From a virus, in the UHGV virus genome UHGV-1915822: DNA of 15,359 nt; one strand, given 5' to 3'. How positions within the stretch are numbered: the first letter of the stretch is position 1; every line of letters starts with the position of its first letter. The notes beneath the pieces were generated by a model that worked only from the letters and a program-made list of their open reading frames with translations, did not search any database and was not told the origin of the DNA. The translations under genes were made by a program, and so were the position numbers. Positions 1,950-15,318 of this stretch are shown here, piece by piece.

Positions 1950-2623
1950 AAAATCTGGTTAAGCGTTTTAATGCAAAGGTTGCCCGAAATGTAAAAAAGG
2001 GTGGGTTGATTGCGGAGGTACAACCAGCACCAATAAAAACAGCCGAATTGCGGGAAACATTAAAAGCAATTAGCAGGCGGGATGTAAATTATAGCTTCCA
2101 AAAGCTGGAAAATTATTTGCGTAAGGGTGCAGAGATGCCATATACGACTAAGAAGGGTGTAAATACAACCGTATGGCAGAAAAAGGAAATTGACAGGGCA
2201 ATAAGAACGATTAACGCCAGAAACAGGCAAGAATTATCGGATTATGAAATTGGGCCATATAAAGGAAATATTGGGACGATTGAAAGAAGTAATATGCGTC
2301 CGAGAAAGAACAGAGTGCAAACGCTTGAGCCTAAAGATTGGGACAGATATGTGGAAAGGCTGGATCGGCAGGTTTATGCTACGAATATCAGTGCAAAGAG
2401 CGCAAGATATAAAGAAAATTTTTTAAAAGCGATTGAAACTACCTTCGGGTCTAACTCAAAGCTATATCAAGCGATTCGTAAAATACCCCCTGAAATGTTG
2501 CATGAATATTATTATACTGATCCAATTTTAACCGTTCAATTTGTATCTGATCCACGTGAAGCCGAAGAAATACAACGTAGGATGTTAGACCGATTAGATG
2601 AAGAAGGTTTACTTCTTGAGTGA
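1898..2623 (+). CDS. terminal protein (protein primer for DNA replication)
   Basis: 241 aa. N-terminus MPNAGKVRWREADEAKLKNLVKRFNAKVARNVKKGG aligns residue-for-residue in length with the recalled phi29 TP N-terminus MARSPRIRIKDNDKAEYARLVKNTKAKIARTKKKYG. Ribosome-binding site AAGGGGG (1881-1887). It is immediately upstream of the polymerase, and its stop overlaps the polymerase GTG start (GTGA). Confidence 0.8.
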   Translation: MPNAGKVRWREADEAKLKNLVKRFNAKVARNVKKGGLIAEVQPAPIKTAELRETLKAISRRDVNYSFQKLENYLRKGAEMPYTTKKGVNTTVWQKKEIDRAIRTINARNRQELSDYEIGPYKGNIGTIERSNMRPRKNRVQTLEPKDWDRYVERLDRQVYATNISAKSARYKENFLKAIETTFGSNSKLYQAIRKIPPEMLHEYYYTDPILTVQFVSDPREAEEIQRRMLDRLDEEGLLLE

Positions 2624-4299
2624 GATATTGCGCTGATTTTGAGACGATCAACGATAAAGATGATTGTCGGGTTTGGGCTTGGTGGATTTCTGAAATTGAC
2701 AATGAAGAAAACAGCGAAAAAGGAAATGACATTGACAGTTTTATGTCCTCTTTATTTATGTATTGCGGGGATACCGTGTATTTTCATAATTTAAAGTTTG
2801 ATGGTGAATTTATTTTAAATTGGCTTTTTAGGAATGGATATACGCATATTCGAGATACGAAATTTAGTAAGGAAAAAACTTTTACTACGTTAATTAGTGA
2901 TACAGGTGCATTTTATTCCATGAAGATTTGTTTTCTTATGCAGGATAAAAAGCCTTTATTTGTAACCATTATTGATAGCTTGAAGATTATTCCTTTAAGT
3001 ATTCGGCAAATGGCTAAGGCGTTCGGATTAGAAGTGTCAAAGGGAGAGATTGATTATAATGCCTTTCGGCCTGTTGGGTATGAACCCAGTGTGGAGGAAT
3101 GGGATTATATCAAGCGTGATGTATATATTGCTTGCCGGGCATTAAGTGTTTTGTTTAATCAGGGGTTAAAAAAGATTACGCAAGCCAGTAATGCAATGGC
3201 CGATTATAAAAAGACGATTCCGAAGAAATTTAGCCGTTGGTTTCCAAAGATTGCGTATGATGCAGATATTCGTAGGAGTTATAGAGGAGGGTTCACTTAT
3301 TTAAACCCAAAGTTTAAGGATATGGACTTAGGTGAGGGCATTGTATTAGATGTAAATAGTTTATATCCTTCTGTTATGTATTATGAGCGTTTACCGTATG
3401 GGGAGCCTATTGCTTTTGAAGGCGAGTACAAGCCGGATGATTTATATGATTTATACGTTCAAAAATTTGCGTGTCAATTTGAATTGAAGAAGGGAAAAAT
3501 TCCTACCGTACAATTAAAGAACAATTTGAGCTTTGTGCCGACGGAATATTTAACATCGTCAGGCGACCAATATGTAACGATGTATATGACGAATGTAGAT
3601 TTAAAATTATTTTTAGAAAATTACGATGTGTATGATCTGGATTATCATAGAGGCTGGAAATTTAAAAGCGCTGAAGGTTTATTTAAAGAATATATTGATA
3701 AATGGATGAAAATAAAGATTGAAAGTGATGGCGTGAATCCGGGTATGAGGCAATTAGCGAAGCTCATGTTAAATGCTTTATATGGTAAATTTGGATTAAA
3801 CCCTGAAATACGAAGTAAAATTCCTTATTTGGACGAAGGGATTATTAAATATCAAACGGTAAAGGAAGAAGATCGAGATCCAATATATATTCCGATGGCT
3901 TCTTTTATCACCAGTTATGCCAGAAATAAAACGATACGATCTGCGCAATCGGTATATGATCGTTTTGTGTATGCAGATACAGACAGCTTGCATTTATTGG
4001 GTTTTGATTATCCTGAGGGGCTGGATATTGACGCGCACCGGTTGGGGGCATGGAAGCCTGAAAGTCGTTTTCATCGTGCCCGTTTTTTACGCCAGAAATG
4101 CTATATTGAGGATGAATTGGATAAAGACGATCAAGCTAAAGGGTTAAAGATTGTGTGCTCAGGCTTACCGGAAGAATGCTATGGGCAGGTGAATTGGGAT
4201 AATTTTCATTATGGGGTGACGTACGAAGGTAAATTGTTCCCTTATCATGCAAAAGGGGGAATCGTATTGACAGAGGGAGAGTTCACCTTAAGGAAATAG
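2620..4299 (+). CDS. protein-primed family B DNA polymerase (phi29-type)
   Basis: 559 aa. Exo I motif in YCADFETIND, Exo II YFHNLKFDGEFIL, motif A DVNSLYPS, motif B KLMLNALYGKF, motif C YADTDS, and KxY in LRQKCY. All closely parallel phi29 DNA polymerase. GTG start at 2620. Confidence 0.95.
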   Translation: MRYCADFETINDKDDCRVWAWWISEIDNEENSEKGNDIDSFMSSLFMYCGDTVYFHNLKFDGEFILNWLFRNGYTHIRDTKFSKEKTFTTLISDTGAFYSMKICFLMQDKKPLFVTIIDSLKIIPLSIRQMAKAFGLEVSKGEIDYNAFRPVGYEPSVEEWDYIKRDVYIACRALSVLFNQGLKKITQASNAMADYKKTIPKKFSRWFPKIAYDADIRRSYRGGFTYLNPKFKDMDLGEGIVLDVNSLYPSVMYYERLPYGEPIAFEGEYKPDDLYDLYVQKFACQFELKKGKIPTVQLKNNLSFVPTEYLTSSGDQYVTMYMTNVDLKLFLENYDVYDLDYHRGWKFKSAEGLFKEYIDKWMKIKIESDGVNPGMRQLAKLMLNALYGKFGLNPEIRSKIPYLDEGIIKYQTVKEEDRDPIYIPMASFITSYARNKTIRSAQSVYDRFVYADTDSLHLLGFDYPEGLDIDAHRLGAWKPESRFHRARFLRQKCYIEDELDKDDQAKGLKIVCSGLPEECYGQVNWDNFHYGVTYEGKLFPYHAKGGIVLTEGEFTLRK

Positions 4300-4328
4300 T
4301 TTACAATTTGTGTAAAAAAGTATATAAT
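4300..4328 (+). promoter_or_regulatory. sigma-A-type promoter upstream of the packaging ATPase gene (TTTACA-N17-TATAAT)
   Basis: TTTACA at 4300-4305 immediately after the polymerase stop, 17-bp spacer, TATAAT at 4323-4328. Confidence 0.5.
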
Positions 4329-4464
4329 AATATTGAGAAGGTAAGACGGAAAAACGGATCAAATGCTGTTATGGGTGCCACTGATGAAAGATTCAGCCAT
4401 AAAGCCGTGGGAGTGGTTTCTATTTGGTTTGTGCCGTTTTATCTTTTCTTTTTTAGGTGGTTTT

Positions 4465-5487
4465 ATGGGTAAATATTGGGACATCGGAAAAATTTTGAGT
4501 TATCAGCGTAATTTTAATTTTATCAATGGCGAACGATCAATAGGAAAAACCTACACGACGGAGAAGTTTTTTATTGAAAAAGCGATTAAAACAGGAAAAG
4601 AATTCGTGTATATTACTCGTACACAGGACGAAAAACGGAACGGAATATTTAAAGAAGCATTCAGCAAAGTAATATCGCGAGAATTTCCCGACAAAGAGAT
4701 TATTTTCACAAATGACGAATGTCTATTAAAAATTGCCGAATACAAAAGATGCTTAGGATATTGTATTGCATTAAGTGAAGCGTTAAAGATAAAGAAACGT
4801 TCTTTCCCGAATGTGTATTATTTAATGTTTGATGAATATATGCTGGAAAATAAAGGTTTAACCCGTTATGTAAATGGATGGAAGGAGCCGGAATTATTTT
4901 TATCTATTTATCATACCATTGACCGTGAAGAAGATCGCGTTATTTGTTTTTTATTGGGGAATAATACAACTTTTTATAACCCGTATCATATGCATCCTGC
5001 GTTTCAAATTCCCCATATAAAAAAGGGACAAATATGGTCAGGGGAGAACGTTCTTTTTCAATGGGCTGAAGGCACAGAAGAATTACGGGAAGAAAAAGCG
5101 AATTGTAAGTTCTTAAAAATGCTGAACGATACTACATATGGTAAATATGCGGTAAAAGGCGACTATATAGAAGATTCTGACGAATTTATTGAAAAAAGAA
5201 GCGCAGAAGCAAGAGTTAGCTTTAATATTGAATATATGGGAAATACCTATGGCATATGGAATGATATGAAGCATGGCCGAATTTACATTGATACAAAAAC
5301 AGACCCGGATTGTACCTTAAATTATGCTTTAACCTTAGAGGATCATAGTGAAAATACCATGTTGACATCAACGAAATCAATCTCTTGTTTAAATTGGCTT
5401 TCTCAAAATTTTAAACTGGGGAATGTTCGTTTTGTTTCTATGGAAGTAAAAAAGATGTGCGAGGGAGCCATCAATCTGATTTTATAG
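4465..5487 (+). CDS. DNA encapsidation (packaging) ATPase, phi29 gp16-like
   Basis: Walker A GERSIGKT and Walker B YYLMFDEY. ILSYQRNFNFINGERSIGKTY parallels phi29 gp16 MLSYDRILNFVIGARGIGKSY. I chose the ATG at 4465 (AGGTGG at 4455-4460) because it places Walker A at the same distance from the N-terminus as in phi29. The track's longest ORF starts at 4363 without a ribosome-binding site and adds a hydrophobic 34-aa extension, so the start is uncertain. Confidence 0.85.
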   Translation: MGKYWDIGKILSYQRNFNFINGERSIGKTYTTEKFFIEKAIKTGKEFVYITRTQDEKRNGIFKEAFSKVISREFPDKEIIFTNDECLLKIAEYKRCLGYCIALSEALKIKKRSFPNVYYLMFDEYMLENKGLTRYVNGWKEPELFLSIYHTIDREEDRVICFLLGNNTTFYNPYHMHPAFQIPHIKKGQIWSGENVLFQWAEGTEELREEKANCKFLKMLNDTTYGKYAVKGDYIEDSDEFIEKRSAEARVSFNIEYMGNTYGIWNDMKHGRIYIDTKTDPDCTLNYALTLEDHSENTMLTSTKSISCLNWLSQNFKLGNVRFVSMEVKKMCEGAINLIL

Positions 5488-5498
5488 GGGTTGATGAA

Positions 5499-5750
5499 AT
5501 GGATGTAAATACTGCGATTCAGTTAATTAACGGTGTAGGATTTCCCATTTTTGCGTGTATTGCTATGGGGGTGTTTGTTGTTTGGGACAAGAAAACCCGG
5601 AAAGACACGGAAGAAAAGCAACAAGATAAGCAGGAAAAGGTTTTAGAAAATATTACAACGGCTTTAAATCAAAATACTTTGGTTATTCAAAAGCTGGTAG
5701 ATAAGCTGGGAGGCGTAGACGATGCAAAAACTGACATTACCGGTAAATAA
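5499..5750 (+). CDS. small single-TM membrane protein, holin-like candidate
   Basis: ATG at 5499 with AGGGG 9 nt upstream; the track ORF starts at an in-frame GTG at 5457 overlapping the ATPase end. One hydrophobic segment GVGFPIFACIAMGVFVVW is followed by a highly charged tail KKTRKDTEEKQQDKQEK. It lies directly upstream of, and overlaps, the M23 peptidase gene. Confidence 0.4.
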   Translation: MDVNTAIQLINGVGFPIFACIAMGVFVVWDKKTRKDTEEKQQDKQEKVLENITTALNQNTLVIQKLVDKLGGVDDAKTDITGK

Positions 5751-6471
5751 TTGCGGAGTTACCTGCGGGTATAAAAATCAGAATTATCGGAATTATTGGG
5801 GATTTGGACATTACGGCGTTGACTATGTGTCCGATAGTCTTGTTCTCTATGCTTTAGGAAACGGCGAGGTGTTGATGAAAGGATGGGATAATCTTTTTGG
5901 CAACATCATTATTATTAAATACCCTGAGGTATATAATCATGCCACGGGTGAAGTAAAAGATTTAATTTGCCGTATGTATCACATGGCGAGTGAAAGTCCT
6001 TGTGAAGTTGGGTATCAAGTAAGCAGAGGAGAAAGCATTGGCATTATGGGGACGACAGGCCAATACTCTAGTGGTGTTCATGTCCATATTGAATTTGATA
6101 CCGACACGAAATATTATAATTACGGAGTTCCGTTGGCTAAGGATTCCAACCTGATTAAAAAGGGTGTGGATTCTACGGTTGATCCTTCGGACATTCTTTA
6201 TGTAGGTTCTAACCAGAGAGTTTACAATAATTCTCTAAATGGGTGGGCAACGGATAAAGAATTAAATTTGCCCTTATTGGACGAAGAACCCGAAAAACCA
6301 AAAGATCCCGAAATGAGTGAAGAATTGAAAAAACAACTGGATGAATTAGCATCCCGTGTTTCTAAAAATGAAAAAGATATATCGGATCTTTACACAGGAA
6401 TGGCGAAGAACGATGAATTTCGTGAAAATATGTTGAAAGCAATGGAGGCGGTTATAAATGGCTCTAACTAG
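5722..6471 (+). CDS. M23 family zinc metallopeptidase (peptidoglycan endopeptidase), virion-associated lysin or endolysin
   Basis: 249 aa. Contains HYGVD (HxxxD) and GTTGQYSSGVHVHIE (HxH), the hallmark LytM/M23 zinc-ligand motifs. Ribosome-binding site GGGAGG (5708-5713). The C-terminal ~100 aa is a charged coiled-coil-like region with no recognisable cell-wall-binding domain. Confidence 0.85.
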   Translation: MQKLTLPVNNCGVTCGYKNQNYRNYWGFGHYGVDYVSDSLVLYALGNGEVLMKGWDNLFGNIIIIKYPEVYNHATGEVKDLICRMYHMASESPCEVGYQVSRGESIGIMGTTGQYSSGVHVHIEFDTDTKYYNYGVPLAKDSNLIKKGVDSTVDPSDILYVGSNQRVYNNSLNGWATDKELNLPLLDEEPEKPKDPEMSEELKKQLDELASRVSKNEKDISDLYTGMAKNDEFRENMLKAMEAVINGSN

Positions 6472-6829
6472 AGACGAATATATGCAAATTTTAGAGCGCA
6501 TCAGTGAAACCGGCGGTTTTACGGAAGCTATGCTCGATGATTTGCAGAAGCTAAAAGACGATTACGATGAACGGGAAGGGATGCTGAAAGTCGAGGATGA
6601 AGCATCGGATAAAACCGTATATACGGATGATCAGGTGTATGATACCGACGGAGTAAGCTGGAGAGATAAATACGACGATATGAAGCGCCGGTATAAAGCA
6701 AGATTCTTTTCTACTCCTCTTGAAGCTAAAGAAGAGCAGATAGAAGATATTGCATCAGACAGCGACAGCACAACCCGTACCTATGAGGAAATTTTTGAAA
6801 CAAGAGAGGGAGATTATAATGCCGACTAA
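6458..6829 (+). CDS. putative head scaffolding protein
   Basis: 123 aa, highly acidic and helix-prone (rich in D/E/K/R), GGAGG at 6444-6448. It sits immediately upstream of the major capsid gene and overlaps it, as scaffold gene 7 does in phi29. No direct sequence match recalled, so the call rests on position and composition. Confidence 0.5.
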   Translation: MALTRDEYMQILERISETGGFTEAMLDDLQKLKDDYDEREGMLKVEDEASDKTVYTDDQVYDTDGVSWRDKYDDMKRRYKARFFSTPLEAKEEQIEDIASDSDSTTRTYEEIFETREGDYNAD

Positions 6830-8111
6830 ACAGACGTACAAAGCCTTGTCGCCTACTGCGCAGAACATGGATATTATGAACTATGTGCGTTCGCAGACCG
6901 ATTTTAATTATCAGAACAGAATCCCGATTGCAACACAGGAAAATTTAAACAACATTTATCAGACGATTCTTTGTAATTACGATTTGCAGAATGAGTTTAT
7001 TAAAACCCTTGTGAATCGTATTGCTCTGACTACCATTTCTTCCAAGCTGATTGAGAATCCCCTTGCCCCCTTGAAAAAGGGCGTAATTCGGCACGGTGAA
7101 TTTGTAAATGAATACTTTGTGAATATTGCAAAAGCGCATGAATTTGATCAGGGCGTTGCAGAGAAGGAGGTATTCAAACGGGAAATCCCGGATGTAGATG
7201 CAGTGTTTCATAAGCTGAACCTCAAGAACTTTTATAAAGTAACCATCTCGAATGAAATGCTCCGAGAAGCGTTCTTGTCCGACAGCGGTATTTCCGACAT
7301 GGTAAGTCGGATTATCGACAGCTTATACAGCGGGGCGAACTATGATGAATTCCTCTGCATGAAAAATATTATCGCAGAAGGGGCAAATAACGGAGCATTT
7401 TTGCCTGTTACGATTCCTGCTGTTACGGGCGATAATATTAAAGATGTGGTAGCAACCATCAAAGCGACTTCAATCAAACTGACGTTCCCCTCAACGAAAT
7501 ACAATGCTATGGGCGTTTTGACACTGACGAAACCCGAAGATCAGATTATTTTGATTGACCCTGATTTTGAGGCTTCAATGGATGTGAACGTTTTGGCAGC
7601 CGCTTTTAATCTCCCTTATGCTCAGTTCATGGCAAACCGGATTCCGATTGATGATTTCGGGGGGATTACCGGTGTCAAAGCCGCTCTTGTTGACCGTAAT
7701 TTCTTTATGGTGTTTGATTTTGAACAGTTGTTCACCGAAAATTACAATGGTCAGGGTTTGTATTGGAACTATTTCTATCATGTATGGAAAATGTTCTCCT
7801 ATTCTCCGTTCTCGAACGCTGTTTTGTTTACTACGGAAACGAATAGTGTACAGAGTGTTGATGTAACGCCCGCAACGGCAACGGTAGCAAGAGGAAATAC
7901 CCAGCAAATGACCGCTGTTGTAGCAACTACCGGCTTTGCACCGAAATCGGTTGATTGGACGGTAACCGGTGCGCAAACTCCAACTTCCTCGATCACCAAT
8001 ACCGGTCTTTTGAGTGTTGCAACCAATGAACCGAATACCACTTTGACGGTAAAAGCAACCAGTACTTTCGATTCCTCGAAATCGGATACCGCCAGCATTA
8101 CCGTTGGCTAA
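6819..8111 (+). CDS. major capsid protein with C-terminal bacterial Ig-like (Big_2-type) domain
   Basis: Start chosen at ATG 6819 (GAGGGAG at 6805-6811); the track ORF begins in-frame upstream at 6750 inside the scaffold gene. NEFIKTLVNRIALTTI parallels phi29 gp8 NDFITTLVDRIGLVVI. The C-terminal ~90 aa (VDVTPATATVARGNTQQMTAVVATTGF...TVKATS...ASITVG) has the Big_2 pattern. Confidence 0.8.
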   Translation: MPTKQTYKALSPTAQNMDIMNYVRSQTDFNYQNRIPIATQENLNNIYQTILCNYDLQNEFIKTLVNRIALTTISSKLIENPLAPLKKGVIRHGEFVNEYFVNIAKAHEFDQGVAEKEVFKREIPDVDAVFHKLNLKNFYKVTISNEMLREAFLSDSGISDMVSRIIDSLYSGANYDEFLCMKNIIAEGANNGAFLPVTIPAVTGDNIKDVVATIKATSIKLTFPSTKYNAMGVLTLTKPEDQIILIDPDFEASMDVNVLAAAFNLPYAQFMANRIPIDDFGGITGVKAALVDRNFFMVFDFEQLFTENYNGQGLYWNYFYHVWKMFSYSPFSNAVLFTTETNSVQSVDVTPATATVARGNTQQMTAVVATTGFAPKSVDWTVTGAQTPTSSITNTGLLSVATNEPNTTLTVKATSTFDSSKSDTASITVG

Positions 8112-8119
8112 AGAATAAC

Positions 8120-8149
8120 GGGGAGCTTTTCGCTCCCCTTTTTTCTTTT
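8120..8149 (+). terminator. rho-independent terminator after the capsid gene
   Basis: Stem GGGGAGC (8120-8126) pairs with GCTCCCC (8132-8138), 5-nt loop, then TTTTTTCTTTT. Confidence 0.8.
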
Positions 8150-8166: not shown

Positions 8167-9804
8167 ATGGAAATTATACCGAATGGAGTTGTAAGGCTAT
8201 GCGCGAATATCCCTTGGGATCCTACCTATAGCGATGTTCGGAAATTTAACAGCGTAGGAGAGCAAACCTCATATATAGCAGGGAAAGCGATTAAAACCTA
8301 TAATAATGTATCCTACCAACGTCCGACATCTAGTGTAGCCCCTCCACGGCCTGCCTTTACCTGCGCTGTACCCGATGTAGCCGATGATCTTTATAACTGT
8401 AACTATATTATGTTTCAAAATACAAATTTCGGCTCAAAATGGTTTTACGGTTTTGTCCGACAGGTAAATTATGTAAACCCGAATTGTACCCATATTGTAT
8501 ATGAAATAGACCAATATCAAACTTGGTGTTTTGATTACGAAGTATTACCGTCTTATGTAGAGAGGGAACACGCCGAAACCGATGAATTATATGAAAACCT
8601 ACAGCCTGAACCGTTTACAGGGTTAGAGACCATTGTAACGGATATTCAAACCGTGCGTCCCAATGGGGGTAGCCCCGATTATAAGATTGTGGTTTGCACA
8701 AACGCTGTTCCGGAAACAGGAGAACCCTCTCCCGGTCAGGTTATTGATAACGTATATTCAGGACTTACCTTTACAGAGTTTTCAGCCAGTGACGGCGGAG
8801 CCGCCGCAAACAATTTTATAAAAGGCTTCAGTGCAGGAACATGGGATCGAATTTTAGATGGGGAAATCCCCTATTTAAGAGCAAGGATTGATGCCATTAT
8901 CAGTATTTTTATGTCACCTTATTCTGTTGTATCTCCCCCAACAAACGACACCGTGACCTTAGAACGGCCTACTACGTTAAATGGTTACGAGCCCAAAAAT
9001 AAAAAAATGCTTACCTATCCGTATTGTTGTTTGGATGTATCGAATAACTGTGGACAAACAAGAACATACTTATACGAAAAATTTACAACGGGAACATCTG
9101 TGTTTCCTATTGAATTCAATCAATATTATACCGCAGGATTTAACCCGACGATTGTTTCATTACCCTCGTTTTATGATAGTGATACAACCGTACAAGGACG
9201 GGGTAACGCAGATATGGCTATTCAGCTTTCAACCTTCCCAGTATGTGGGTGGAGCGGAGACGCTTTCAGCGATTGGCTAAATAATGAATATCAATCAAAA
9301 CAAAGCGGGATTTTATCGAATTTAGCAATCGGTATTGCCGGTGTGTTATTATCAGCAGGAACAGGAGGGGTAGCCGGTACAGCTTTAGCAGTAGGGGCAG
9401 GCAGGGAATTATTAAGCGGTATTTCCGAAGGTGCTTCGTTAGGAAGAGAAAAACAACTTCGTTCACAATCACAGGGTGCTACAATGGCAACCCCGTTAAA
9501 TAGTAGCTTTAATTTCAAAACAGACAGTGTAGGCATCACCTATAAACAAAAAGCTATCCGTGCGGAAATGGCCGAAGCGATTGATAGCTATTTTGATATG
9601 TATGGCTATGCGACTAACAAGGTCAAGGTGCCGAATGAGGATAGCCGCCCGTCATGGAATTATGTAAAATGCGATAATGTCATCATTCACGGCTCATGCC
9701 CGGTTGAAGCCATTACCACGATAAAAACCCTTTATAATAACGGCGTTCGTTTTTGGCATACCGACAGCGTGGGAAACTTTGCTTTATATAATGGGGTGGA
9801 ATAA
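8167..9804 (+). CDS. tail knob protein (phi29 gp9-like)
   Basis: 545 aa. YIMFQNTNFGSKWFYGFV parallels phi29 gp9 YIMFQNADYGNKWFYAFV, and C-terminal RFWHTDSVGNF parallels TLWHTDNIGNY. Ribosome-binding site AAAGGGTGA. Confidence 0.85.
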   Translation: MEIIPNGVVRLCANIPWDPTYSDVRKFNSVGEQTSYIAGKAIKTYNNVSYQRPTSSVAPPRPAFTCAVPDVADDLYNCNYIMFQNTNFGSKWFYGFVRQVNYVNPNCTHIVYEIDQYQTWCFDYEVLPSYVEREHAETDELYENLQPEPFTGLETIVTDIQTVRPNGGSPDYKIVVCTNAVPETGEPSPGQVIDNVYSGLTFTEFSASDGGAAANNFIKGFSAGTWDRILDGEIPYLRARIDAIISIFMSPYSVVSPPTNDTVTLERPTTLNGYEPKNKKMLTYPYCCLDVSNNCGQTRTYLYEKFTTGTSVFPIEFNQYYTAGFNPTIVSLPSFYDSDTTVQGRGNADMAIQLSTFPVCGWSGDAFSDWLNNEYQSKQSGILSNLAIGIAGVLLSAGTGGVAGTALAVGAGRELLSGISEGASLGREKQLRSQSQGATMATPLNSSFNFKTDSVGITYKQKAIRAEMAEAIDSYFDMYGYATNKVKVPNEDSRPSWNYVKCDNVIIHGSCPVEAITTIKTLYNNGVRFWHTDSVGNFALYNGVE

Positions 9805-10706
9805 TGGATTGTATGAAATTATTTGGACATAAACCTCCTAAAAAATACGCGCATTTGATTATGAATCACCGTACGTTTTGGGATTACTATTACCGTTTAT
9901 TGGGATTAAGCGTAAATTTATTTGAATGGAAAAATATACCCGATACCATTGACCCCAGATTTCTGGAGCTTACCTTGATTGAACGCGGATATGCAGTATA
10001 CTTTAATGATGAAGTATTAGGGGATCTTGCATTACCCTGTAGGATTGGTACTCCTTTAAATGTATATCGGATACCTGTTAGAAGAACTGCCTACTCGGTA
10101 AATGGATATAATAAGGATCTTACCATAGAAAATTCGGTTATGATCTTTAATAATTATCTGCACACTCCTTCTGTAGAAACAATCCTTCTTTTTGCCGGAA
10201 GATTGGCCGAAATTGAACGAACAATCGATGTAAATGTAAAAGCGCAAAAAACGCCTGTCACAATTCTTTGCGAACCACAGCAGGAATTTACCTTTAAAAA
10301 CTTTTACAACAAGGTGTCAGAAAATGAGCCGGTTATTATCGGAAACGCGCAAGGGTTTTCATTAGACAGCGTAAAGGTTCTGAATACCGCTTCTCCCTAT
10401 GTAGGCGACAAGCTCAATATTTTAAAGCGTCAAATATGGAATGAAGCGCTAACCTTCCTTGGGATTGAAAATGTTTCAAGTGATAAGAAAGAAAGGCTTG
10501 TCAGTGATGAAGTAGAAACCAACCTTGGCGCAGTAGCCGCGCAACGCTATACCCTTTTAAATTCCCGCAGAGAAGCAGCAGAAAAGATCAATAAAATGTT
10601 CGGTACGAATATTGAAGTAAACTTTAGGGCTGAAACGAGAACAGAGGAAAGAATTGCAGATTTACCCGAAAACGAGTATAATGGTTATAGAGAGGAAGTG
10701 GAATAA
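9804..10706 (+). CDS. portal / upper collar connector protein (phi29 gp10-like)
   Basis: 300 aa. LFEWKNIPDTIDPRFLE, KAQKTPVTIL and KKERLVSDEV parallel phi29 gp10 LFEWENLPPTINPSFLE, NAQKTPVLIR and KKERMVTDEV. TAATG overlap with the tail knob stop. Confidence 0.85.
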   Translation: MDCMKLFGHKPPKKYAHLIMNHRTFWDYYYRLLGLSVNLFEWKNIPDTIDPRFLELTLIERGYAVYFNDEVLGDLALPCRIGTPLNVYRIPVRRTAYSVNGYNKDLTIENSVMIFNNYLHTPSVETILLFAGRLAEIERTIDVNVKAQKTPVTILCEPQQEFTFKNFYNKVSENEPVIIGNAQGFSLDSVKVLNTASPYVGDKLNILKRQIWNEALTFLGIENVSSDKKERLVSDEVETNLGAVAAQRYTLLNSRREAAEKINKMFGTNIEVNFRAETRTEERIADLPENEYNGYREEVE

Positions 10707-11731
10707 TGGCCGAATATAGCATTGAATTAGGTACATTAGTAAAAATGGGCTATCCGCTTGCTCTTAATGATTACCCGATCTTTCGCGAAGATTACCGGGA
10801 AATACTAAACCGAAAAATTATCGATCACTTCTATTTCCGTGAAATTGGTTTTGAAACGCCCGACCGTTTTAATCATTTCCTCCATATGGTGATGCATGAA
10901 AACATGCCGTATTTCAACCAATTATATGAGAGTGAATTCTTAAAGTTTGACCCTCTCAGCACGGACTATTTTGAAGAGGTATCGGAGGATGTAACGAACA
11001 ATATAAAAGCGGGCAGACGGGACAACACACACACCCAAACCGAAACCACCGGTGACAGGTATACTTCGTTACATTCTCTCGATTCCTCCATCAACGTTGT
11101 TGGTAATGTATCCGACAAGGGAAATATTAACGATACCGAGAACATTACTTCAAAATCAACCCAAACGAATGATTTGACTACACAGGTAAATTCAAGCAGT
11201 CAAGGTGACGGAACACAAGACACGACCGGAAGCAGAACCAAATATTTTTCCGATATGCCGCAAACCGCAATTACCAATACCACAACGGTTAATCCCGATG
11301 GAAGCGTCACCTATTCTACAAACGGTTATGCAACCACCATGGAAACGGAAAGCACAGCCCAGCACGATGTTACCCATACCGAGGAAACGGGGCAATCTAC
11401 ATCGACCAATACCGGCACTATTGTCACCGAGGGAGAAAGCGACCGAACCTATGGAAGAACAACCACAAATACAACCGATGAAACCAACGATAGAACCCAA
11501 AAAGACACCCAACACGAAGATACACAACGCAATATCCTGAACAATTTGTCTTTCTTAGACAATGCGGTCAATAGCGAGGCAACCGATGAAACAAGAAAAA
11601 GTAAAAATGCTCGGAAAGGGCGCTCCGGCGTTTCTCCTTCTTCCCTTATTCAGGAATATCGGAATACGTTTTTAAATATTGATAAACAGGTTATTGCAAG
11701 CCTCGAAAATTTATTTATGGGGGTATTCTAA
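10706..11731 (+). CDS. lower collar protein (phi29 gp11-like) with long polar low-complexity insert
   Basis: 341 aa. Position between portal and appendage genes matches gene 11 in phi29. TAATG overlaps on both sides. The central ~170 aa is T/S/N/D/E/Q-rich low complexity. Confidence 0.6.
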   Translation: MAEYSIELGTLVKMGYPLALNDYPIFREDYREILNRKIIDHFYFREIGFETPDRFNHFLHMVMHENMPYFNQLYESEFLKFDPLSTDYFEEVSEDVTNNIKAGRRDNTHTQTETTGDRYTSLHSLDSSINVVGNVSDKGNINDTENITSKSTQTNDLTTQVNSSSQGDGTQDTTGSRTKYFSDMPQTAITNTTTVNPDGSVTYSTNGYATTMETESTAQHDVTHTEETGQSTSTNTGTIVTEGESDRTYGRTTTNTTDETNDRTQKDTQHEDTQRNILNNLSFLDNAVNSEATDETRKSKNARKGRSGVSPSSLIQEYRNTFLNIDKQVIASLENLFMGVF

Positions 11732-14700
11732 TGTACGATTGCAACAAAAAGCCTTGCACTCCACCTCCTGTGGATCCATGCGAGCATCACCATCCTTGTG
11801 GCCCGGATTTTCCGAATTTTTGCCCTCCTCCTGCTCCCCACCCTGCCCCTTATCAGCCTCCTTGCCCATCCGTTGCGGAGGGCTCTTCGCTATATGAGGC
11901 CGTCAACAATCTGACGAATCGCGTCAACACCTGTATGGCAACCTATAACGATGTAATGGCAAACTGCTATAAAACACTTCACAATCTGGAATGCGCGGCA
12001 CAGGAAAACGGGGCATATTATGATTGCCATGAGGTATGGACAGAAACCGGTTATCAGCCGGACGAAAGCGCAACCTATACCATTATTCATAAAGCCGTTG
12101 TCGACCGACGCGGTGAGCCGATCCGTATGCAATTACATCTTGCTTATGGAAATACGACTAATTCGCAGATTACCCAAAACTTATTTTCTGCATCCGAAGT
12201 AACGCTGGCAGACAAAATTGTCCCGGCTATTCCTCTTACCGGTACAGGCTGGTATGGTAATGCGATTATAAACGGTTGCCCGATTCCTTCAACCGAAGCC
12301 TCTACCTATTATACAGTTGGCTTTACGAAAAAAGGTGTAATGCGCTATTACCCGAATTCGGTATCGGTTGATCAAATGTTAAAGGATACCATTGAGAATG
12401 CCATGGGGTGCTCAGGCGTTCTCATTATCAACAGCCAGATTGCAAATGATGCATTCTTTGAGCATATCCCGAACGCTACCGAACAAAAAGCACGTATCGT
12501 TATGGGCCAAAACTACGATACCCGCGAGGTCATGATTCTCGTATGCGGACAGGAAAACAATGTTGATAAAAAAGGTCTCACTTCTAAAGCGTGCGCCGAA
12601 ATTCTTCTTCAGTATGGTTGTGACATCGCCGTGGAGCTTTCCGAAGGTGACAGCGCAGGAGCATGTGACAAAGGGCAACTGATGTTCGTCCCCGACAATA
12701 ACAATGTGCCGGAGACTTACGCATTCTGGTATATCTCCCGCAAATGCTTCTATTGCAATGATTACCAGCGTGAACTCGCAAAGCTCATGCAGAATTATGG
12801 AACTTGTCTTTGGCAAACATATTTGAATAAAAAGAAAATCGAACAGCTTCGGGAGGATTTGAATACCGAAATCACAAATCGCGAGGATGCCGATCAGGTA
12901 TTGCAAAACCAAATCCTCGAAGAAGTCGATAATCGCGTTAAAGCTGACGAAGTATTGCAAAACCAAATCCTTGCAGAGGTCGATAACCGCGTTAAAGCAG
13001 ACGAAGTATTACAAAACCAAATCCTCGCGGAAGTGGACAACAGAGTTAACGCAGATAATGTCCTGCAAAACCAGATCCTTACGGAAGTAGACGCGAGAAA
13101 AAATGCAGACGATGTTTTACAAAATCAAATCCTTGAGGAAGTAAAAAATAGAGAAAACGCAGATAACACCCTGCAAGAACAAATCCTTACCGAAACAAAC
13201 GCAAGAATCGATGCGGATGAATCCCTGCAAAATCAAATTATTACCGAAACAAACGCCCGTGTCGCGTATGATGAAAACTTACAAGCACAAATTACAAAAG
13301 AAGTAACCGATAGAACAAATGCGGATGCTACCCTGCATCAAGAAATATTAACCGAACAAGGCGAAAGAATCGCCGCAGATGAAGTTCTTCAAAGAAATAT
13401 CAACGAAGAAGCCGCTACTAGAGCAGAAGAAGATACAAAACTACAAGGTAATATTGATGCAGAAACAACCGCCAGACAAGAAGCAGATGCCACCCTGCAA
13501 TCGAATATCGACGCATTGGCACAAAGAGTAACCGTCCTTGAAACGGATGTCGATCAGCTTCAAACCCTCTATAATTCCTTGCAGGAACAAACCGCCGCAA
13601 TGGATACAGCCATTACTTCCATTCAGCAAACGATTGCTTCTATTGAAACTTCTCTGAATAATGTAAAAACCTCTATCGACAATATCACCAACGGTACAAC
13701 ACTCCTGCCGTATTTGCCGATCAAAGGCGGTACAATGCAAGGTTCCATCAACATGAATAATAAATCGATTACCAATGTTCCTTCTCCTTCAGCAGACGGC
13801 GACGCGGTAAACAAAAAATATGTTGATGACGCGATTGCAGGTGGTATTACTCCTCCAACAGGCGACTATCTCCCCTTATCCGGCGGTACCATGACGGGAA
13901 ACATCAACATGAATAACAACCGTGTAACCTCTGTAGGAGCGCCCAGCGCAGGTACAGATGCAGTAAATAAAGACTATGTTGATGATGAAATCGCAACCGC
14001 AGGAGATGGAAAATTCCTTCCGTTGGCAGGTGGCGCATTAACCGGCGCAGTTACTACTACCGAAACTGAATTTGAAAATAATGAGCTTGTTACAAAATCG
14101 TATGTAGATGGACAGGTTGCAACCGCTGGAAATGGAAAATTCCTTCCATTAGCAGGTGGAACCATGACCGGGGCAATCAACATGGGTAATCAGAAAGTAA
14201 CAGCGGTCGCTACGCCTACTACAGGCACCGATGCTACCAATAAAACCTATGTGGATAACGCCATTTCTACTGCCGGAAATGGAAAATTCCTGCCGTTAGC
14301 AGGCGGAACTATGACCGGAGCAATCAATATGGGTAATCAAAAAGTAACAGCAGTCGCCACCCCGACAGATGGCTCAGATGCCGCAAATAAACAATATGTT
14401 GATCAAGCTGTTGCCGGTTCGTCTTATACGCTGCCTGCCGCTACTACTACTACACTTGGAGGTGTAAAGGTTGGAGAAGGTTTGTCCGTTACCGCGGATG
14501 GCACGTTGTCGGCTACGGGTGGAAGCACAGATATTCCCATTGCAAGCGATACCGTTCTTGGTGGAATTAAAGTCGGGGAATCACTTTCTATTGAAGCTGA
14601 CGGTACTTTAAGCGTTGTTGCATCCGATAATCCTACTACTCCGCGAATGCCTGTTAATAAAGAGTATGTCGATAATCAGCTCGACAATTTTGTAGCAAAA

Positions 14701-15318
14701 ACTGGCGATACTATGACAGGGCATTTATCAATGAGCAATCGATCAAACGTTAAAATTTTAGATGATGACGATGAACCTGTTGCAAGTCTTGGTTATCTGT
14801 TTGGCGTTACAAAACCTAGAGGAATTATATCTTTCTTAAAAAACCCGGGCACCATCAATAACCTATTTAATGAAAATTATCTTGCTACGTATGCCTTAAA
14901 TCAACGAGAAGCTGTAAACTATGTAGGACGTACATTCAAATTCGGTGGAACCTTTACGGGAGGAGCATATAACTGTGTTGCTACACATTTAGGATTTGAA
15001 GATCCTAATGGTAAGGCTTCCAGATATGCAAATGTCAAATTAGATATTGACATCTATTGCTTAACTCCTATTACGACTGCTCCTTCCTTTGCCTTCAATC
15101 TACCAACTTCTATTTTTACGGTAAGAACTGGAACTATCACAGACGAAATATGGAAATTTACATACGCAGATAATGTATATTTGAATATTACTGCTCAAGA
15201 AGGTGGTACTATTATTTGTAAATTTGGAGGTTCACCTGCCGTTGGTAGGCATATTTCTGCTACGATTATACCTTATCAGCTTGCTTGGAGTATTGATCCG
15301 GCTATCAATCTTCATTAA
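11731..15318 (+). CDS. pre-neck appendage / tail fibre protein (gp12-position), multidomain
   Basis: 1195 aa at the gene-12 position. Contains a Cys/Pro/His-rich N-terminus, an N-terminal globular region of ~280 aa, about 15 tandem 14-aa repeats, five phage tail-fibre-type repeats (LPLAGGTMTG...NK.YVD), two GG-VKVGE-DGTLS repeats, and a distinct C-terminal domain. Confidence 0.85.
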   Translation: MYDCNKKPCTPPPVDPCEHHHPCGPDFPNFCPPPAPHPAPYQPPCPSVAEGSSLYEAVNNLTNRVNTCMATYNDVMANCYKTLHNLECAAQENGAYYDCHEVWTETGYQPDESATYTIIHKAVVDRRGEPIRMQLHLAYGNTTNSQITQNLFSASEVTLADKIVPAIPLTGTGWYGNAIINGCPIPSTEASTYYTVGFTKKGVMRYYPNSVSVDQMLKDTIENAMGCSGVLIINSQIANDAFFEHIPNATEQKARIVMGQNYDTREVMILVCGQENNVDKKGLTSKACAEILLQYGCDIAVELSEGDSAGACDKGQLMFVPDNNNVPETYAFWYISRKCFYCNDYQRELAKLMQNYGTCLWQTYLNKKKIEQLREDLNTEITNREDADQVLQNQILEEVDNRVKADEVLQNQILAEVDNRVKADEVLQNQILAEVDNRVNADNVLQNQILTEVDARKNADDVLQNQILEEVKNRENADNTLQEQILTETNARIDADESLQNQIITETNARVAYDENLQAQITKEVTDRTNADATLHQEILTEQGERIAADEVLQRNINEEAATRAEEDTKLQGNIDAETTARQEADATLQSNIDALAQRVTVLETDVDQLQTLYNSLQEQTAAMDTAITSIQQTIASIETSLNNVKTSIDNITNGTTLLPYLPIKGGTMQGSINMNNKSITNVPSPSADGDAVNKKYVDDAIAGGITPPTGDYLPLSGGTMTGNINMNNNRVTSVGAPSAGTDAVNKDYVDDEIATAGDGKFLPLAGGALTGAVTTTETEFENNELVTKSYVDGQVATAGNGKFLPLAGGTMTGAINMGNQKVTAVATPTTGTDATNKTYVDNAISTAGNGKFLPLAGGTMTGAINMGNQKVTAVATPTDGSDAANKQYVDQAVAGSSYTLPAATTTTLGGVKVGEGLSVTADGTLSATGGSTDIPIASDTVLGGIKVGESLSIEADGTLSVVASDNPTTPRMPVNKEYVDNQLDNFVAKTGDTMTGHLSMSNRSNVKILDDDDEPVASLGYLFGVTKPRGIISFLKNPGTINNLFNENYLATYALNQREAVNYVGRTFKFGGTFTGGAYNCVATHLGFEDPNGKASRYANVKLDIDIYCLTPITTAPSFAFNLPTSIFTVRTGTITDEIWKFTYADNVYLNITAQEGGTIICKFGGSPAVGRHISATIIPYQLAWSIDPAINLH
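12868..13530 (+). repeat. tandem 42-bp (14-codon) repeats, about 15 units, inside the appendage gene
   Basis: Unit consensus at protein level is roughly N-R-x-x-A-D-x-x-L-Q-N-Q-I-L-x-E-V-D. Adjacent DNA units are near-identical, for example GTATTGCAAAACCAAATCCT recurs at 42-bp spacing. Confidence 0.8.
13711..14420 (+). repeat. five tail-fibre repeat units of 126-147 bp; the last two are near-identical 147-bp direct repeats
   Basis: Protein units LP(L/I)xGGTMxG.INM.N..VT.V..P....DA.NK.YVD. The DNA copies beginning near 14125 and 14272 are almost identical over about 147 bp. Confidence 0.8.
14431..14620 (+). repeat. two ~30-codon repeats (T-LGG-KVGE-L-ADGTLS)
   Basis: LPAATTTTLGGVKVGEGLSVTADGTLSA followed by IPIASDTVLGGIKVGESLSIEADGTLSV. 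Confidence 0.7.

Follow-up and report, generated by a model that had tools for sequence, protein, structure and literature searches.

The virus genome UHGV-1915822, of which a stretch of 15,359 nucleotides (the window) was analyzed, carries the gene of a small membrane protein followed by the gene of an M23 peptidase, and the question raised by this pair is whether it serves to lyse the host from within, to open the cell wall when the virion enters, or both. A preliminary description of this DNA considered the peptidase either as a virion-associated entry lysin attached through a coiled coil, or as an unconventional endolysin paired with a single-TM holin. Our analysis makes it quite likely that the two genes form an ordinary holin-endolysin lysis cassette of a small phi29-like phage.

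The source of the window is a small phi29-like podovirus of approximately 15.8 kb, the window being almost the whole genome, and its host is probably a gut Clostridia bacterium. A sibling contig, L002 (15,802 bp, 95-96% nucleotide identity to the window), adds only 79 bp on the left and 40 bp on the right, and its right end lies around 80 bp past the last gene; the region beyond position 15318, which the preliminary description proposed to check for an endolysin, is thus extended by just these 40 bp. Long inverted terminal repeats, which would prove that the genome is complete, were looked for and not found; the termini of L002 are merely A-rich (AAAAAAAG and CAAAAAAG), and a 30-nt terminal inverted identity in the relative L004 might be produced by the assembly itself (k = 31). 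No match to the whole window was obtained by megablast among 50,697 GenBank phages, nor by a scan of the window with Rfam, and no database copy that was found carries an annotation for either cassette gene.

The two ORFs (5457..5750 and 5722..6471, plus strand) are as previously described, and so is the location of the cassette between packaging and head genes: its upstream neighbour encodes a Podovirus_Gp16 packaging ATPase (Pfam, E = 2.8e-47), and downstream of it there is an ORF in the position of the scaffold gene and then the capsid gene (Phi29_MCP, E = 3e-106). A promoter-like site upstream of the cassette (Table 1) may start a unit formed by the genes of the ATPase, the membrane protein, the M23 enzyme, the scaffold and the capsid protein; across the window as a whole, such sites are no more numerous than expected from shuffled sequence. 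A hairpin located 3' of the capsid gene would likely be the end of this transcription unit or an attenuator.

Table 1. Features of the cassette and its surroundings, in positions of the window
Feature	Position	Strand	Evidence or remarks
Promoter-like site, TTTACA-17-TATAAT, 11/12	4300..4328	+	consensus match only
83-aa single-pass membrane protein, probable holin	5499..5750	+	hydropathy, charge, conserved family, neighbours
Shine-Dalgarno-like GGGAGG	5708..5713	+	8 nt before ATG 5722, within the 3' end of the membrane-protein gene
249-aa M23 zinc metallopeptidase, probable endolysin	5722..6471	+	Pfam, PHROG, AF2, Foldseek, homologue context
Catalytic core, residues 1-189, MQKLxLP to NLP motif	5722..6288	+	pLDDT, family alignments
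HxxxD motif, H30-Y-G-V-D34, zinc ligands	5809..5823	+	invariant; aligns with LytM HYGVDY
H87, third conserved catalytic histidine	5980..5982	+	invariant
HxH motif, H120-V-H122	6079..6087	+	invariant; aligns with LytM HVH
Acidic Pro-rich linker (residues 190-198) and helical tail (199-249)	6289..6468	+	AF2, charge, heptads
Strong hairpin and T-run 3' of the capsid gene	8120..8138	+	7-bp stem, 6 GC pairs, TTTTTTCTTT tail

The ORF of the membrane protein is open from a GTG at 5457, and its real start is the ATG at 5499, which has GGGG approximately 8 nt upstream; in the alignment, MDVNT is the N-terminus in 14/14 homologues, and only P0166 reaches upstream of it. A dual-start arrangement producing a holin and an antiholin was considered and found no support, given that the GTG lies inside the ATPase gene and that the upstream extension occurs in P0166 alone. 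The protein is, as had been proposed, a single-TM protein with a charged tail: it has one hydrophobic segment (residues 10-28, nt 5526-5582, KD19 = 2.13), a short N-terminus with a net charge of -1, and a 53-aa tail with KKTRK at its start, 11 K/R, 10 D/E and a heptad-like pattern, as well as a conserved NxNT...KL motif. For this charged helical tail, a cytoplasmic location is predicted. In these traits the protein is similar to the BhlA/UviB-type single-TM holins (PF10960), in which one N-terminal TM helix precedes a long, charged and helical tail (70-90 aa in all); this likeness would be an architectural resemblance, given that the profile score is below threshold (Holin_BhlA, E = 0.005, 17.3 bits versus a cutoff of 22.6 bits), and only 2/15 members of the family match Holin_BhlA at E <= 0.1, the other 13 having no match at all. 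In PHROG the protein matches phrog_4898 'holin' (E = 1e-7), with an aligned stretch of only 17 residues, and also phrog_2429.

On these grounds, together with the neighbourhood of the gene, the protein probably acts as a holin. It could instead be a membrane organizer of the p16.7 type or a lysis regulator, the M23 enzyme being released by another route; we consider this unlikely, even though the Holin_BhlA score and the short PHROG alignment leave room for it and homologues exist that do not adjoin a lysin, one of them in L062, after the ATPase gene and before the connector gene, and another, a weak one (tblastn E = 1e-3), in the ATPase-connector position of Acinetobacter phage Phanie. The N-terminal half of phi29 p16.7 would likewise consist of a TM helix at its N-terminus with a helical tail behind it (PMC11476376). 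Against a function of this kind, the membrane protein is the sole ORF adjoining the lysin, and no other TM protein was recognized among the ORFs examined, hydropathy having been computed for the two cassette proteins only. In addition, its gene adjoins the ATPase and structural genes and has their orientation, instead of being grouped with replication genes, and its family travels with four unrelated types of wall enzyme (see below). A weak similarity to an ORF annotated as 'holin' in Bam35c (E = 0.3) points in the same direction and carries little weight.

Regarding the second gene, an M23 peptidase with intact HxxxD and HxH motifs had been reported, and this is borne out by two family alignments, of 14 and 26 sequences, in which H30 and D34, H87, and H120 and H122 are invariant. 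The Pfam model PF01551 matches residues 30-133 (E = 1.3e-11, 44.9 bits versus a cutoff of 28.7 bits), and the protein matches phrog_3578 'endolysin' (E = 5.5e-20) and, more weakly, other endolysin PHROGs. The catalytic core extends past the Pfam model on both sides: in the AF2 model (whole-protein pLDDT of 81) residues 1-189 have values of about 80-97, and in a search of 1.84 billion proteins most of the matches span from residues 1-2 of the query to approximately 160-190. Using Foldseek, the model, whose core has the M23 beta-sheet fold, matches gp13, DipM, LytM, lysostaphin and ShyA with a probability of 1.0; the best PDB match is the M23 domain of phi29 gp13 (E = 3.5e-8, 195 columns, 17% identity), by a small margin over DipM (1.8e-7). 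With a maximal KD19 of 0.78, no N-terminal hydrophobic stretch and no TM segment, the enzyme lacks a signal peptide or signal-anchor by this simple hydropathy test. It had also been stated that no cell-wall-binding domain is recognizable, and indeed neither such a domain nor any other besides PF01551 was found in the protein with Pfam or NCBIfam. A tblastn search among GenBank phages returned only three weak M23 matches, which left the analysis without an annotated close relative.

The C-terminus had been described as an acidic coiled coil. Its acidic and helical character was confirmed: residues 186-249 have a net charge of -7 (17 D/E, 10 K/R), and AF2 predicts a disordered linker (190-198, pLDDT below 50) followed by three low-confidence helices (200-213, 217-229 and 231-247, pLDDT 50-60). 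A coiled coil, for its part, is only plausible, with hydrophobic residues at 10/14 a/d heptad positions in one register. The same layout of core, linker and helical tail is present in homologues that are adjacent to holins in bacterial genomes; the tail is therefore a trait of an endolysin family and not a phi29 tail adaptor. The tail was also considered as a piece for docking to the virion, and when compared with the scaffold, the fibre and all the proteins of the window it gave only compositional coiled-coil matches.

The association of this family with holins was evident from a scan of genome contigs, which yielded 46 loci with M23 homologues (33-47% identity), mostly in Oscillospiraceae/Ruminococcaceae, many of them with a multi-TM ORF directly upstream of the M23 ORF. 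When 12 of the upstream ORFs were scanned, 11 were Pfam holins with E values from 1e-16 to 1e-38 (Phage_holin_4_1, n = 5; Phage_holin_1, n = 4; Phage_holin_5_2, n = 1; Phage_holin_6_1, n = 1). From a scan of viral contigs a single distant locus emerged, L001, whose contig is small and apparently GC-rich. The homologues from Angelakisella, Bittarella and other Oscillospiraceae, which are uncharacterized, represent Clostridia prophage-type M23 endolysins (PHROG 3578) that share with the enzyme the same core of ~185 aa (MQKLxLP ... NLP), the H/D/H/H/H set, a short linker and a helical tail of 30-60 aa. They differ in that they are located in bacterial chromosomes behind multi-TM holins, whereas here the partner has a single TM segment and belongs to a phi29-like lytic phage, and in that the tail described here (~50 aa of helices) is longer and more acidic. 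No biochemical study of these homologues was found in the literature.

In relatives of the phage, several enzymes occupy the position that follows the membrane-protein gene. It is the M23 enzyme in L002-L005 and L009, a GH25 enzyme in L063 and, in L060 and L061, an SH3_3 protein of 246 aa. In Hungatella phage CH17P1 and Clostridium phage CS229P2 (OP172758, OP172773; capsid identity of 44-46%), the closest relatives in culture, the position is taken by CW_7 plus Amidase_5/Phage_lysozyme2. In these two cultured phages, as in the window, the only wall hydrolase comes after the homologous membrane protein and directly upstream of the scaffold and capsid genes; their enzyme lacks M23 and the helical tail, and a stand-alone CW_7 protein of 59-60 aa lies in between. 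Judged from these gene neighbourhoods, four types of wall enzyme beside one family of membrane proteins look like the well-known exchange of endolysin modules beside a holin. The holin-linked M23 family and the interchangeable enzymes support the earlier idea of an endolysin with a single-TM holin; calling it unconventional was an overstatement, given that M23 endolysins are known.

Several of these were compared with the enzyme. The endolysin of Staphylococcus phage 2638A (PDB 6YJ1), LysTt72 of Thermus (PDB 8S3M), gp14 of PineapplePizza and LysA of Arthrobacter/Microbacterium phages use an M23 domain for lysis from within; the structural matches to M23 endolysins of other phages have a probability of 1.0 with identities of ~12-26%. 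Those enzymes have several domains, including an amidase and an SH3b or another wall-binding domain, and the helical tail is found here instead. In PineapplePizza, a phi29-like Microbacterium phage, gp14 was already annotated as an M23 endolysin (PMC10586137).

Phage phi29 itself has a separate holin, p14, and a muramidase endolysin, p15, that carries a wall-binding domain (PMC11476376). This is likewise a two-component lysis cassette adjoining the gene of the gp16 ATPase; in contrast, the enzyme described here is a peptidase without a wall-binding domain, the gene order is inverted (16-holin-lysin versus 14-15-16 in phi29), and none of the searches detected sequence similarity to the lysis genes of phi29. 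The other phi29 protein to be considered is the tail-tip gp13 ('morphogenesis protein 1', PDB 3CSQ), whose C-terminal domain is also M23, both phages being phi29-like. However, gp13 has an N-terminal lysozyme domain, PF18013, and no helical tail, whereas the enzyme of the window has the tail and no PF18013 domain, its M23 domain starting at residue 1; besides, the gp13 gene follows the appendage gene, and the M23 gene lies here between the ATPase and the scaffold genes. In L060 and L061 a PF18013 'phage tail lysozyme' gene is present in addition to the enzyme that follows the membrane protein, and it stands apart, beside the gp9 knob gene; hence the position occupied by the M23 gene is not that of gp13.

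As had been stated, the window contains no other lysin. Scans with Pfam, PHROG and NCBIfam of the main plus-strand genes, the minus-strand ORF at 48-215 and the ORF at 4308-4472 revealed no other peptidoglycan hydrolase, and the remaining small ORFs have no lysis-related match. The NAGPA domain of the fibre was examined as a second lysin and discarded, given that it belongs to a phosphodiester glycosidase family, not to the peptidoglycan hydrolases; the extra 3' genes of L003-L005 are fibre modules. A canonical holin-endolysin pair elsewhere in the genome, which the preliminary description would have counted against its proposal, was not found; on the contrary, the near-complete genome lacks a second lysin. 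Host lysis must therefore depend on the M23 enzyme, since it is the sole peptidoglycan hydrolase. The enzyme could nonetheless be devoted to entry, with lysis left to, for instance, the membrane protein on its own or a small inhibitor of wall synthesis, as the operon with structural genes, the scaffold and capsid genes directly downstream, and the gp13-like fold might suggest; we regard this as very improbable, given that the M23 family is strongly tied to holins elsewhere, that the protein is assigned to an endolysin PHROG, and that no alternative lysis gene was seen among the remaining small ORFs. In addition, tailed phages of Gram-positive hosts are not known to lyse them with a single gene.

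According to the holin-endolysin reading, the two genes would be transcribed together with those of the packaging ATPase, the scaffold and the capsid protein, and from this company expression late in infection would be expected. The 83-aa protein would enter the cytoplasmic membrane through its N-terminal helix, with an N-out, C-in topology predicted by the positive-inside rule, and would accumulate until, acting as a holin, it opens the membrane. Meanwhile the M23 enzyme would build up folded in the cytoplasm, since it has no signal peptide, and after the membrane breach it would reach the wall and cut peptide bonds in the peptidoglycan cross-links, with H30, D34 and H122 binding zinc and H87 and H120 in catalysis. 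The acidic helical tail would replace a wall-binding domain, and its most likely role would be to oligomerize the enzyme.

Since the genome has no dedicated tail lysin, there is room for a virion role of the enzyme. In addition to acting as an endolysin, a few copies of the protein could become part of the virion, either in the head or, like phi29 gp13, at the tail tip, for local digestion at entry, with the helical tail as the handle for assembly. PRD1 P15 is both a lytic enzyme and a component of the virion. Consistent with such a dual use, neither a gp13-type protein nor a further peptidoglycan hydrolase was found in the relatives L003-L005 and L009, gp13 is the top fold match, the enzyme that occupies the same position in CH17P1 and CS229P2 holds the PF18013 'tail lysozyme' domain and is annotated as 'morphogenesis protein 1', and one homologue, P0010 (L011), immediately precedes Dit and tail genes. 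Nevertheless, dual use seems rather improbable, considering that the helical tail occurs equally behind canonical holins, that no structural protein of the window resembles it in a meaningful way, that in the sister phage the tail lysozyme is a separate gene beside gp9, and that L063 manages with a plain GH25 enzyme and no tail lysin, which suggests that tail lysins are dispensable in this clade. The proposal of an entry lysin in the preliminary description has thus lost its main argument, the tail, and keeps the one given by the lack of a second lysin. It is similarly doubtful that the clade of gut phi29-like phages of ~15-16 kb dropped a dedicated gp13-type tail lysin and now uses the M23 protein both as a holin-released endolysin and as an entry enzyme recruited to the virion by its coiled coil.

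With the holin-endolysin reading, these data define an uncharacterized family of M23 endolysins with a helical tail at the C-terminus and no wall-binding domain. Its members are common both among uncultured phi29-like phages and in prophage-like regions of gut Oscillospiraceae, and could provide enzymes against gut Clostridia. The cassette is ordinary in kind, and it stands out only as the source of the sole wall-cutting enzyme of the phage. Several very small phi29-like genomes have a single hydrolase, from which either the tail lysin is dispensable for infection or the endolysin doubles as one; were dual use true, one gene would serve both crossings of the thick Gram-positive wall. Neither the value for annotation nor the single hydrolase alters the current view of phage lysis.

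The endolysins of CD27L and 2638A produce a tail-only isoform from an internal translation start. An equivalent isoform was considered for the M23 gene and discarded, as reading the sequence upstream of Met198 revealed no Shine-Dalgarno. The translational overlap of the two genes noticed earlier amounts to 29 nt (5722-5750), and only this lineage has it; in the relatives L003-L005 and L009 the membrane protein is shorter by its last 11 residues, which leaves a gap of 5 nt between the two genes.

The window is nearly the entire genome of a small phi29-like podovirus, with every major gene on the plus strand (see the table). A sibling contig, L002 (Logan SRR24987863, 15,802 bp, 95-96% identity), reaches past it by just 79 bp on the left and 40 bp on the right, and the region beyond 15318, where the preliminary description had left room for an endolysin, holds nothing coding. 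Among GenBank phages no close relative was found at the DNA level; the closest ones in culture infect gut Clostridia and measure 14-16 kb. They are Hungatella phage CH17P1, Clostridium symbiosum phages CS229P1-3 and C. innocuum phages, and their capsid proteins are 40-46% identical to that of the window.

Coordinates of the main features of the window
Feature	Position	Strand
SSB	1162-1602	+
gp4-like late activator	1641-1949	+
Terminal protein	1898-2623	+
Protein-primed DNA polymerase	2620-4299	+
Promoter-like site (TTTACA-17-TATAAT, consensus match only)	4300-4328	
gp16-type packaging ATPase	4363/4465-5487	+
Membrane protein	5499-5750	+
M23 peptidase	5722-6471	+
123-aa acidic ORF, scaffold position	6458-6829	+
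Phi29_MCP capsid protein with Big_2 domain	end 8111	+
Strong hairpin terminator (consensus match only)	8120-8138	
gp9 tail knob	8167-9804	+
gp10 connector	9804-10706	+
Lower collar	10706-11731	+
1195-aa fibre	11731-15318	+

Two gene starts are ambiguous. The ATPase ORF is listed from 4363, its Pfam match starts only at residue 38 and the gene call in L002 is equivalent to ATG 4465; for the capsid ORF, listed from TTG 6750, the L002 call is equivalent to ATG 6819, which makes it overlap the scaffold ORF by 11 nt. An additional gene of ~330 bp in L002 (880-1210; 121 aa, no recorded family match) is missing from the window at ~801-817. L002 starts AAAAAAAG... and its other end, in reverse complement, starts CAAAAAAG...; these ends would fit a very short, phi29-type inverted terminal repeat. 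The two ends of the sister contig L004 share an exact 30-nt inverted identity, which may stem from a longer repeat that was collapsed during assembly.

Both ORFs of the cassette are real, and the earlier observation of a membrane-protein gene overlapped by a peptidase gene was borne out in full. The start of the first is ATG 5499 rather than GTG 5457, and MDVNT opens 14 of 14 homologues. Its 83-aa product has a slightly acidic N-terminus, one hydrophobic segment (residues 10-28), a KKTRK cluster after the TM helix, and a charged, helical tail with an invariant N-T pair (N59, T60; typically NNT). Its family, which occurs on phi29-like contigs of 10-18 kb, is small, well conserved and lacks annotation. 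We consider this protein a likely holin, and rate it no higher because its match to the Pfam family Holin_BhlA is below threshold and because in the sister contig L062 the gene lies after the ATPase and before the connector, with the lysin elsewhere; the same placement, more weakly supported, occurs in Acinetobacter phage Phanie. In tblastn searches the protein gave weak matches (E = 1e-3 to 1e-2) in Phanie (4307-4519) and DU_PP_III, 11-12-kb phi29-like phages of Gram-negative hosts in which the matched small ORF comes after the ATPase gene, and also to ORFs of gut Microviridae; for Astrid the E-value was 0.7. These matches could represent a widespread family of small membrane proteins or a compositional artefact.

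The second gene starts at ATG 5722, 8 nt past GGGAGG, overlaps the first by 29 nt and encodes 249 aa. By every sequence and fold criterion the enzyme belongs to family M23: its Pfam match is significant, with 44.9 bits where the cutoff is 28.7, and the motifs that had been described as intact (H30-x3-D34 and H120-x-H122) are, like H87, invariant throughout the family. The nearest NCBIfam models, the DD-endopeptidases MepM and ShyC, score far under their thresholds. The N-terminus is not hydrophobic, and Pfam and NCBIfam scans found no domain besides M23, in line with the reported lack of a wall-binding domain. In the AlphaFold model (mean pLDDT 81) a confident core (residues 1-189) is followed by a disordered, acidic, Pro-rich linker (190-198) and three low-confidence helices (200-247). 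With a net charge of -7 and hydrophobic residues in a heptad-like pattern, the C-terminus is acidic and helical as had been proposed; that it forms a true coiled coil is plausible.

An exhaustive profile search with this protein retrieved 879 cluster representatives at E <= 1e-3 (202 at E <= 1e-10), mostly of 190-260 aa with an extended M23 core right from the start, and some of ~400 aa that are tandem duplications. PHROGs assigned it to phrog_3578, 'endolysin' (E = 5.5e-20). A bacterial scan, with one genome per species, identified 46 loci, mainly in Oscillospiraceae and Ruminococcaceae (Angelakisella, Bittarella, Hydrogenoanaerobacterium). At many of them a multi-TM ORF abuts the M23 ORF on the upstream side, and 11 of the 12 such ORFs scanned are Pfam holins (four families, E = 1e-16 to 1e-38); at one locus an Amidase_3 gene lies directly downstream. 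The bacterial homologues share the layout of the window protein, in which the core, up to an NLP motif, is followed by a short linker and a helical tail of 30-60 aa. Since homologues next to holins have the same layout, this enzyme family routinely serves as endolysin, and the helical tail is a family trait, not an adaptor for a phi29-type tail.

The preliminary description had also considered a virion lysin. In the PDB the best-matching fold is that of the phi29 gp13 M23 domain (3CSQ, E = 3.5e-8, 17% identity), with a marginal lead over DipM and LytM, and one M23 homologue is encoded upstream of Dit and tail genes; against this, the helical tail is not specific to phi29 and is unlike every structural protein of the window. 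As had been noted, the scanned ORFs of the window yielded no further peptidoglycan hydrolase, which would favour a virion role; we regard a dual function, as endolysin and virion lysin, as unlikely, and a purely structural role as very improbable. A gp13-type protein was ruled out, given that the PF18013 domain is absent and the gene position is wrong. The homologue near Dit (231 aa; in the region 510-3866 of contig L011) follows a 76-aa membrane protein and directly precedes Dit-like and minor-tail genes, a placement unusual for a lysis cassette and a tail lysin alike, on a low-coverage contig.

Across the sister phages the membrane-protein gene is constant and its downstream neighbour varies: an M23 enzyme in L002-L005 and L009, a GH25 muramidase in L063, a 246-aa SH3_3-containing protein in L060 and L061, and, in the cultured CH17P1 and CS229P2, a stand-alone CW_7 mini-protein followed by an Amidase_5 + Phage_lysozyme2 enzyme. 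This is the familiar modular exchange of endolysins beside a holin, and it fits the published picture of phi29-like phages trading their wall-degrading enzymes horizontally (PMC11476376). The 'tail lysozyme' domain at this position in the cultured relatives favours a virion lysin; in L063, however, a plain GH25 suffices and a tail enzyme is absent. L060 (9675-10391) and L061 (9685-10401) encode, besides the SH3_3 enzyme, a 'phage tail lysozyme' (PF18013, 238 aa) in a gene of its own just upstream of the gp9 knob gene; where present in the sister group, the gp13-type enzyme is thus located in the tail module rather than behind the membrane-protein gene. The CW_7 ORF of CH17P1 (9421-9600, minus strand) and CS229P2 (7163-7345, plus strand), 59-60 aa with a single wall-binding repeat, sits between the holin-like gene and the enzyme gene, and these phages may have a two-component endolysin with a separately encoded binding subunit.

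The cassette, read here as a probable holin and an M23 endolysin, is bracketed, together with the ATPase, scaffold and capsid genes, by the promoter-like site and the hairpin terminator. The membrane protein would insert with its N-terminus out and its C-terminus in, as the positive-inside rule predicts, build up and then permeabilise the membrane; the cytoplasmic zinc endopeptidase would gain access to peptidoglycan and cut its peptide cross-links. Most likely the helical tail would oligomerise the enzyme, substituting for a wall-binding domain. The cassette would work like phi29 p14/p15, with a peptidase where phi29 has a muramidase and the opposite gene order with respect to gp16. Other phage M23 endolysins have been described (2638A, LysTt72, actinophage LysA), and the phi29-like Microbacterium phage PineapplePizza has an annotated one; the modest interest here lies in an uncharacterised M23 endolysin family with a helical tail and in the economy of a single hydrolase in very small phi29-like genomes.

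At 4300-4464 the promoter-like site is followed by a ~115-nt non-coding leader with a long outer helix (fold z-score -2.47), directly upstream of ATG 4465, the probable real ATPase start. L003, L005 and L009 have equivalent gaps of 130-185 nt, and RNAalifold gave 31 pairs, of which 11 show compensatory changes. An Rfam scan of the entire window did not find pRNA; the leader could be a divergent packaging RNA adjoining the ATPase gene. The AT-rich intergenic region at 766-938, between early ORFs of 57 and 84 aa, has a 14-bp hairpin at its 5' end and a fold that beats 200 of 200 shuffles (z = -3.19). The fibre has a Cys/Pro-rich N-terminus, 18-aa tandem (nt 12898-13194) and 49-aa (nt 14128-14403) repeats, and a NAGPA phosphodiester glycosidase domain (residues 187-324, E = 8e-7), also present in L004 and L005, that might act as a depolymerase for a wall glycopolymer.
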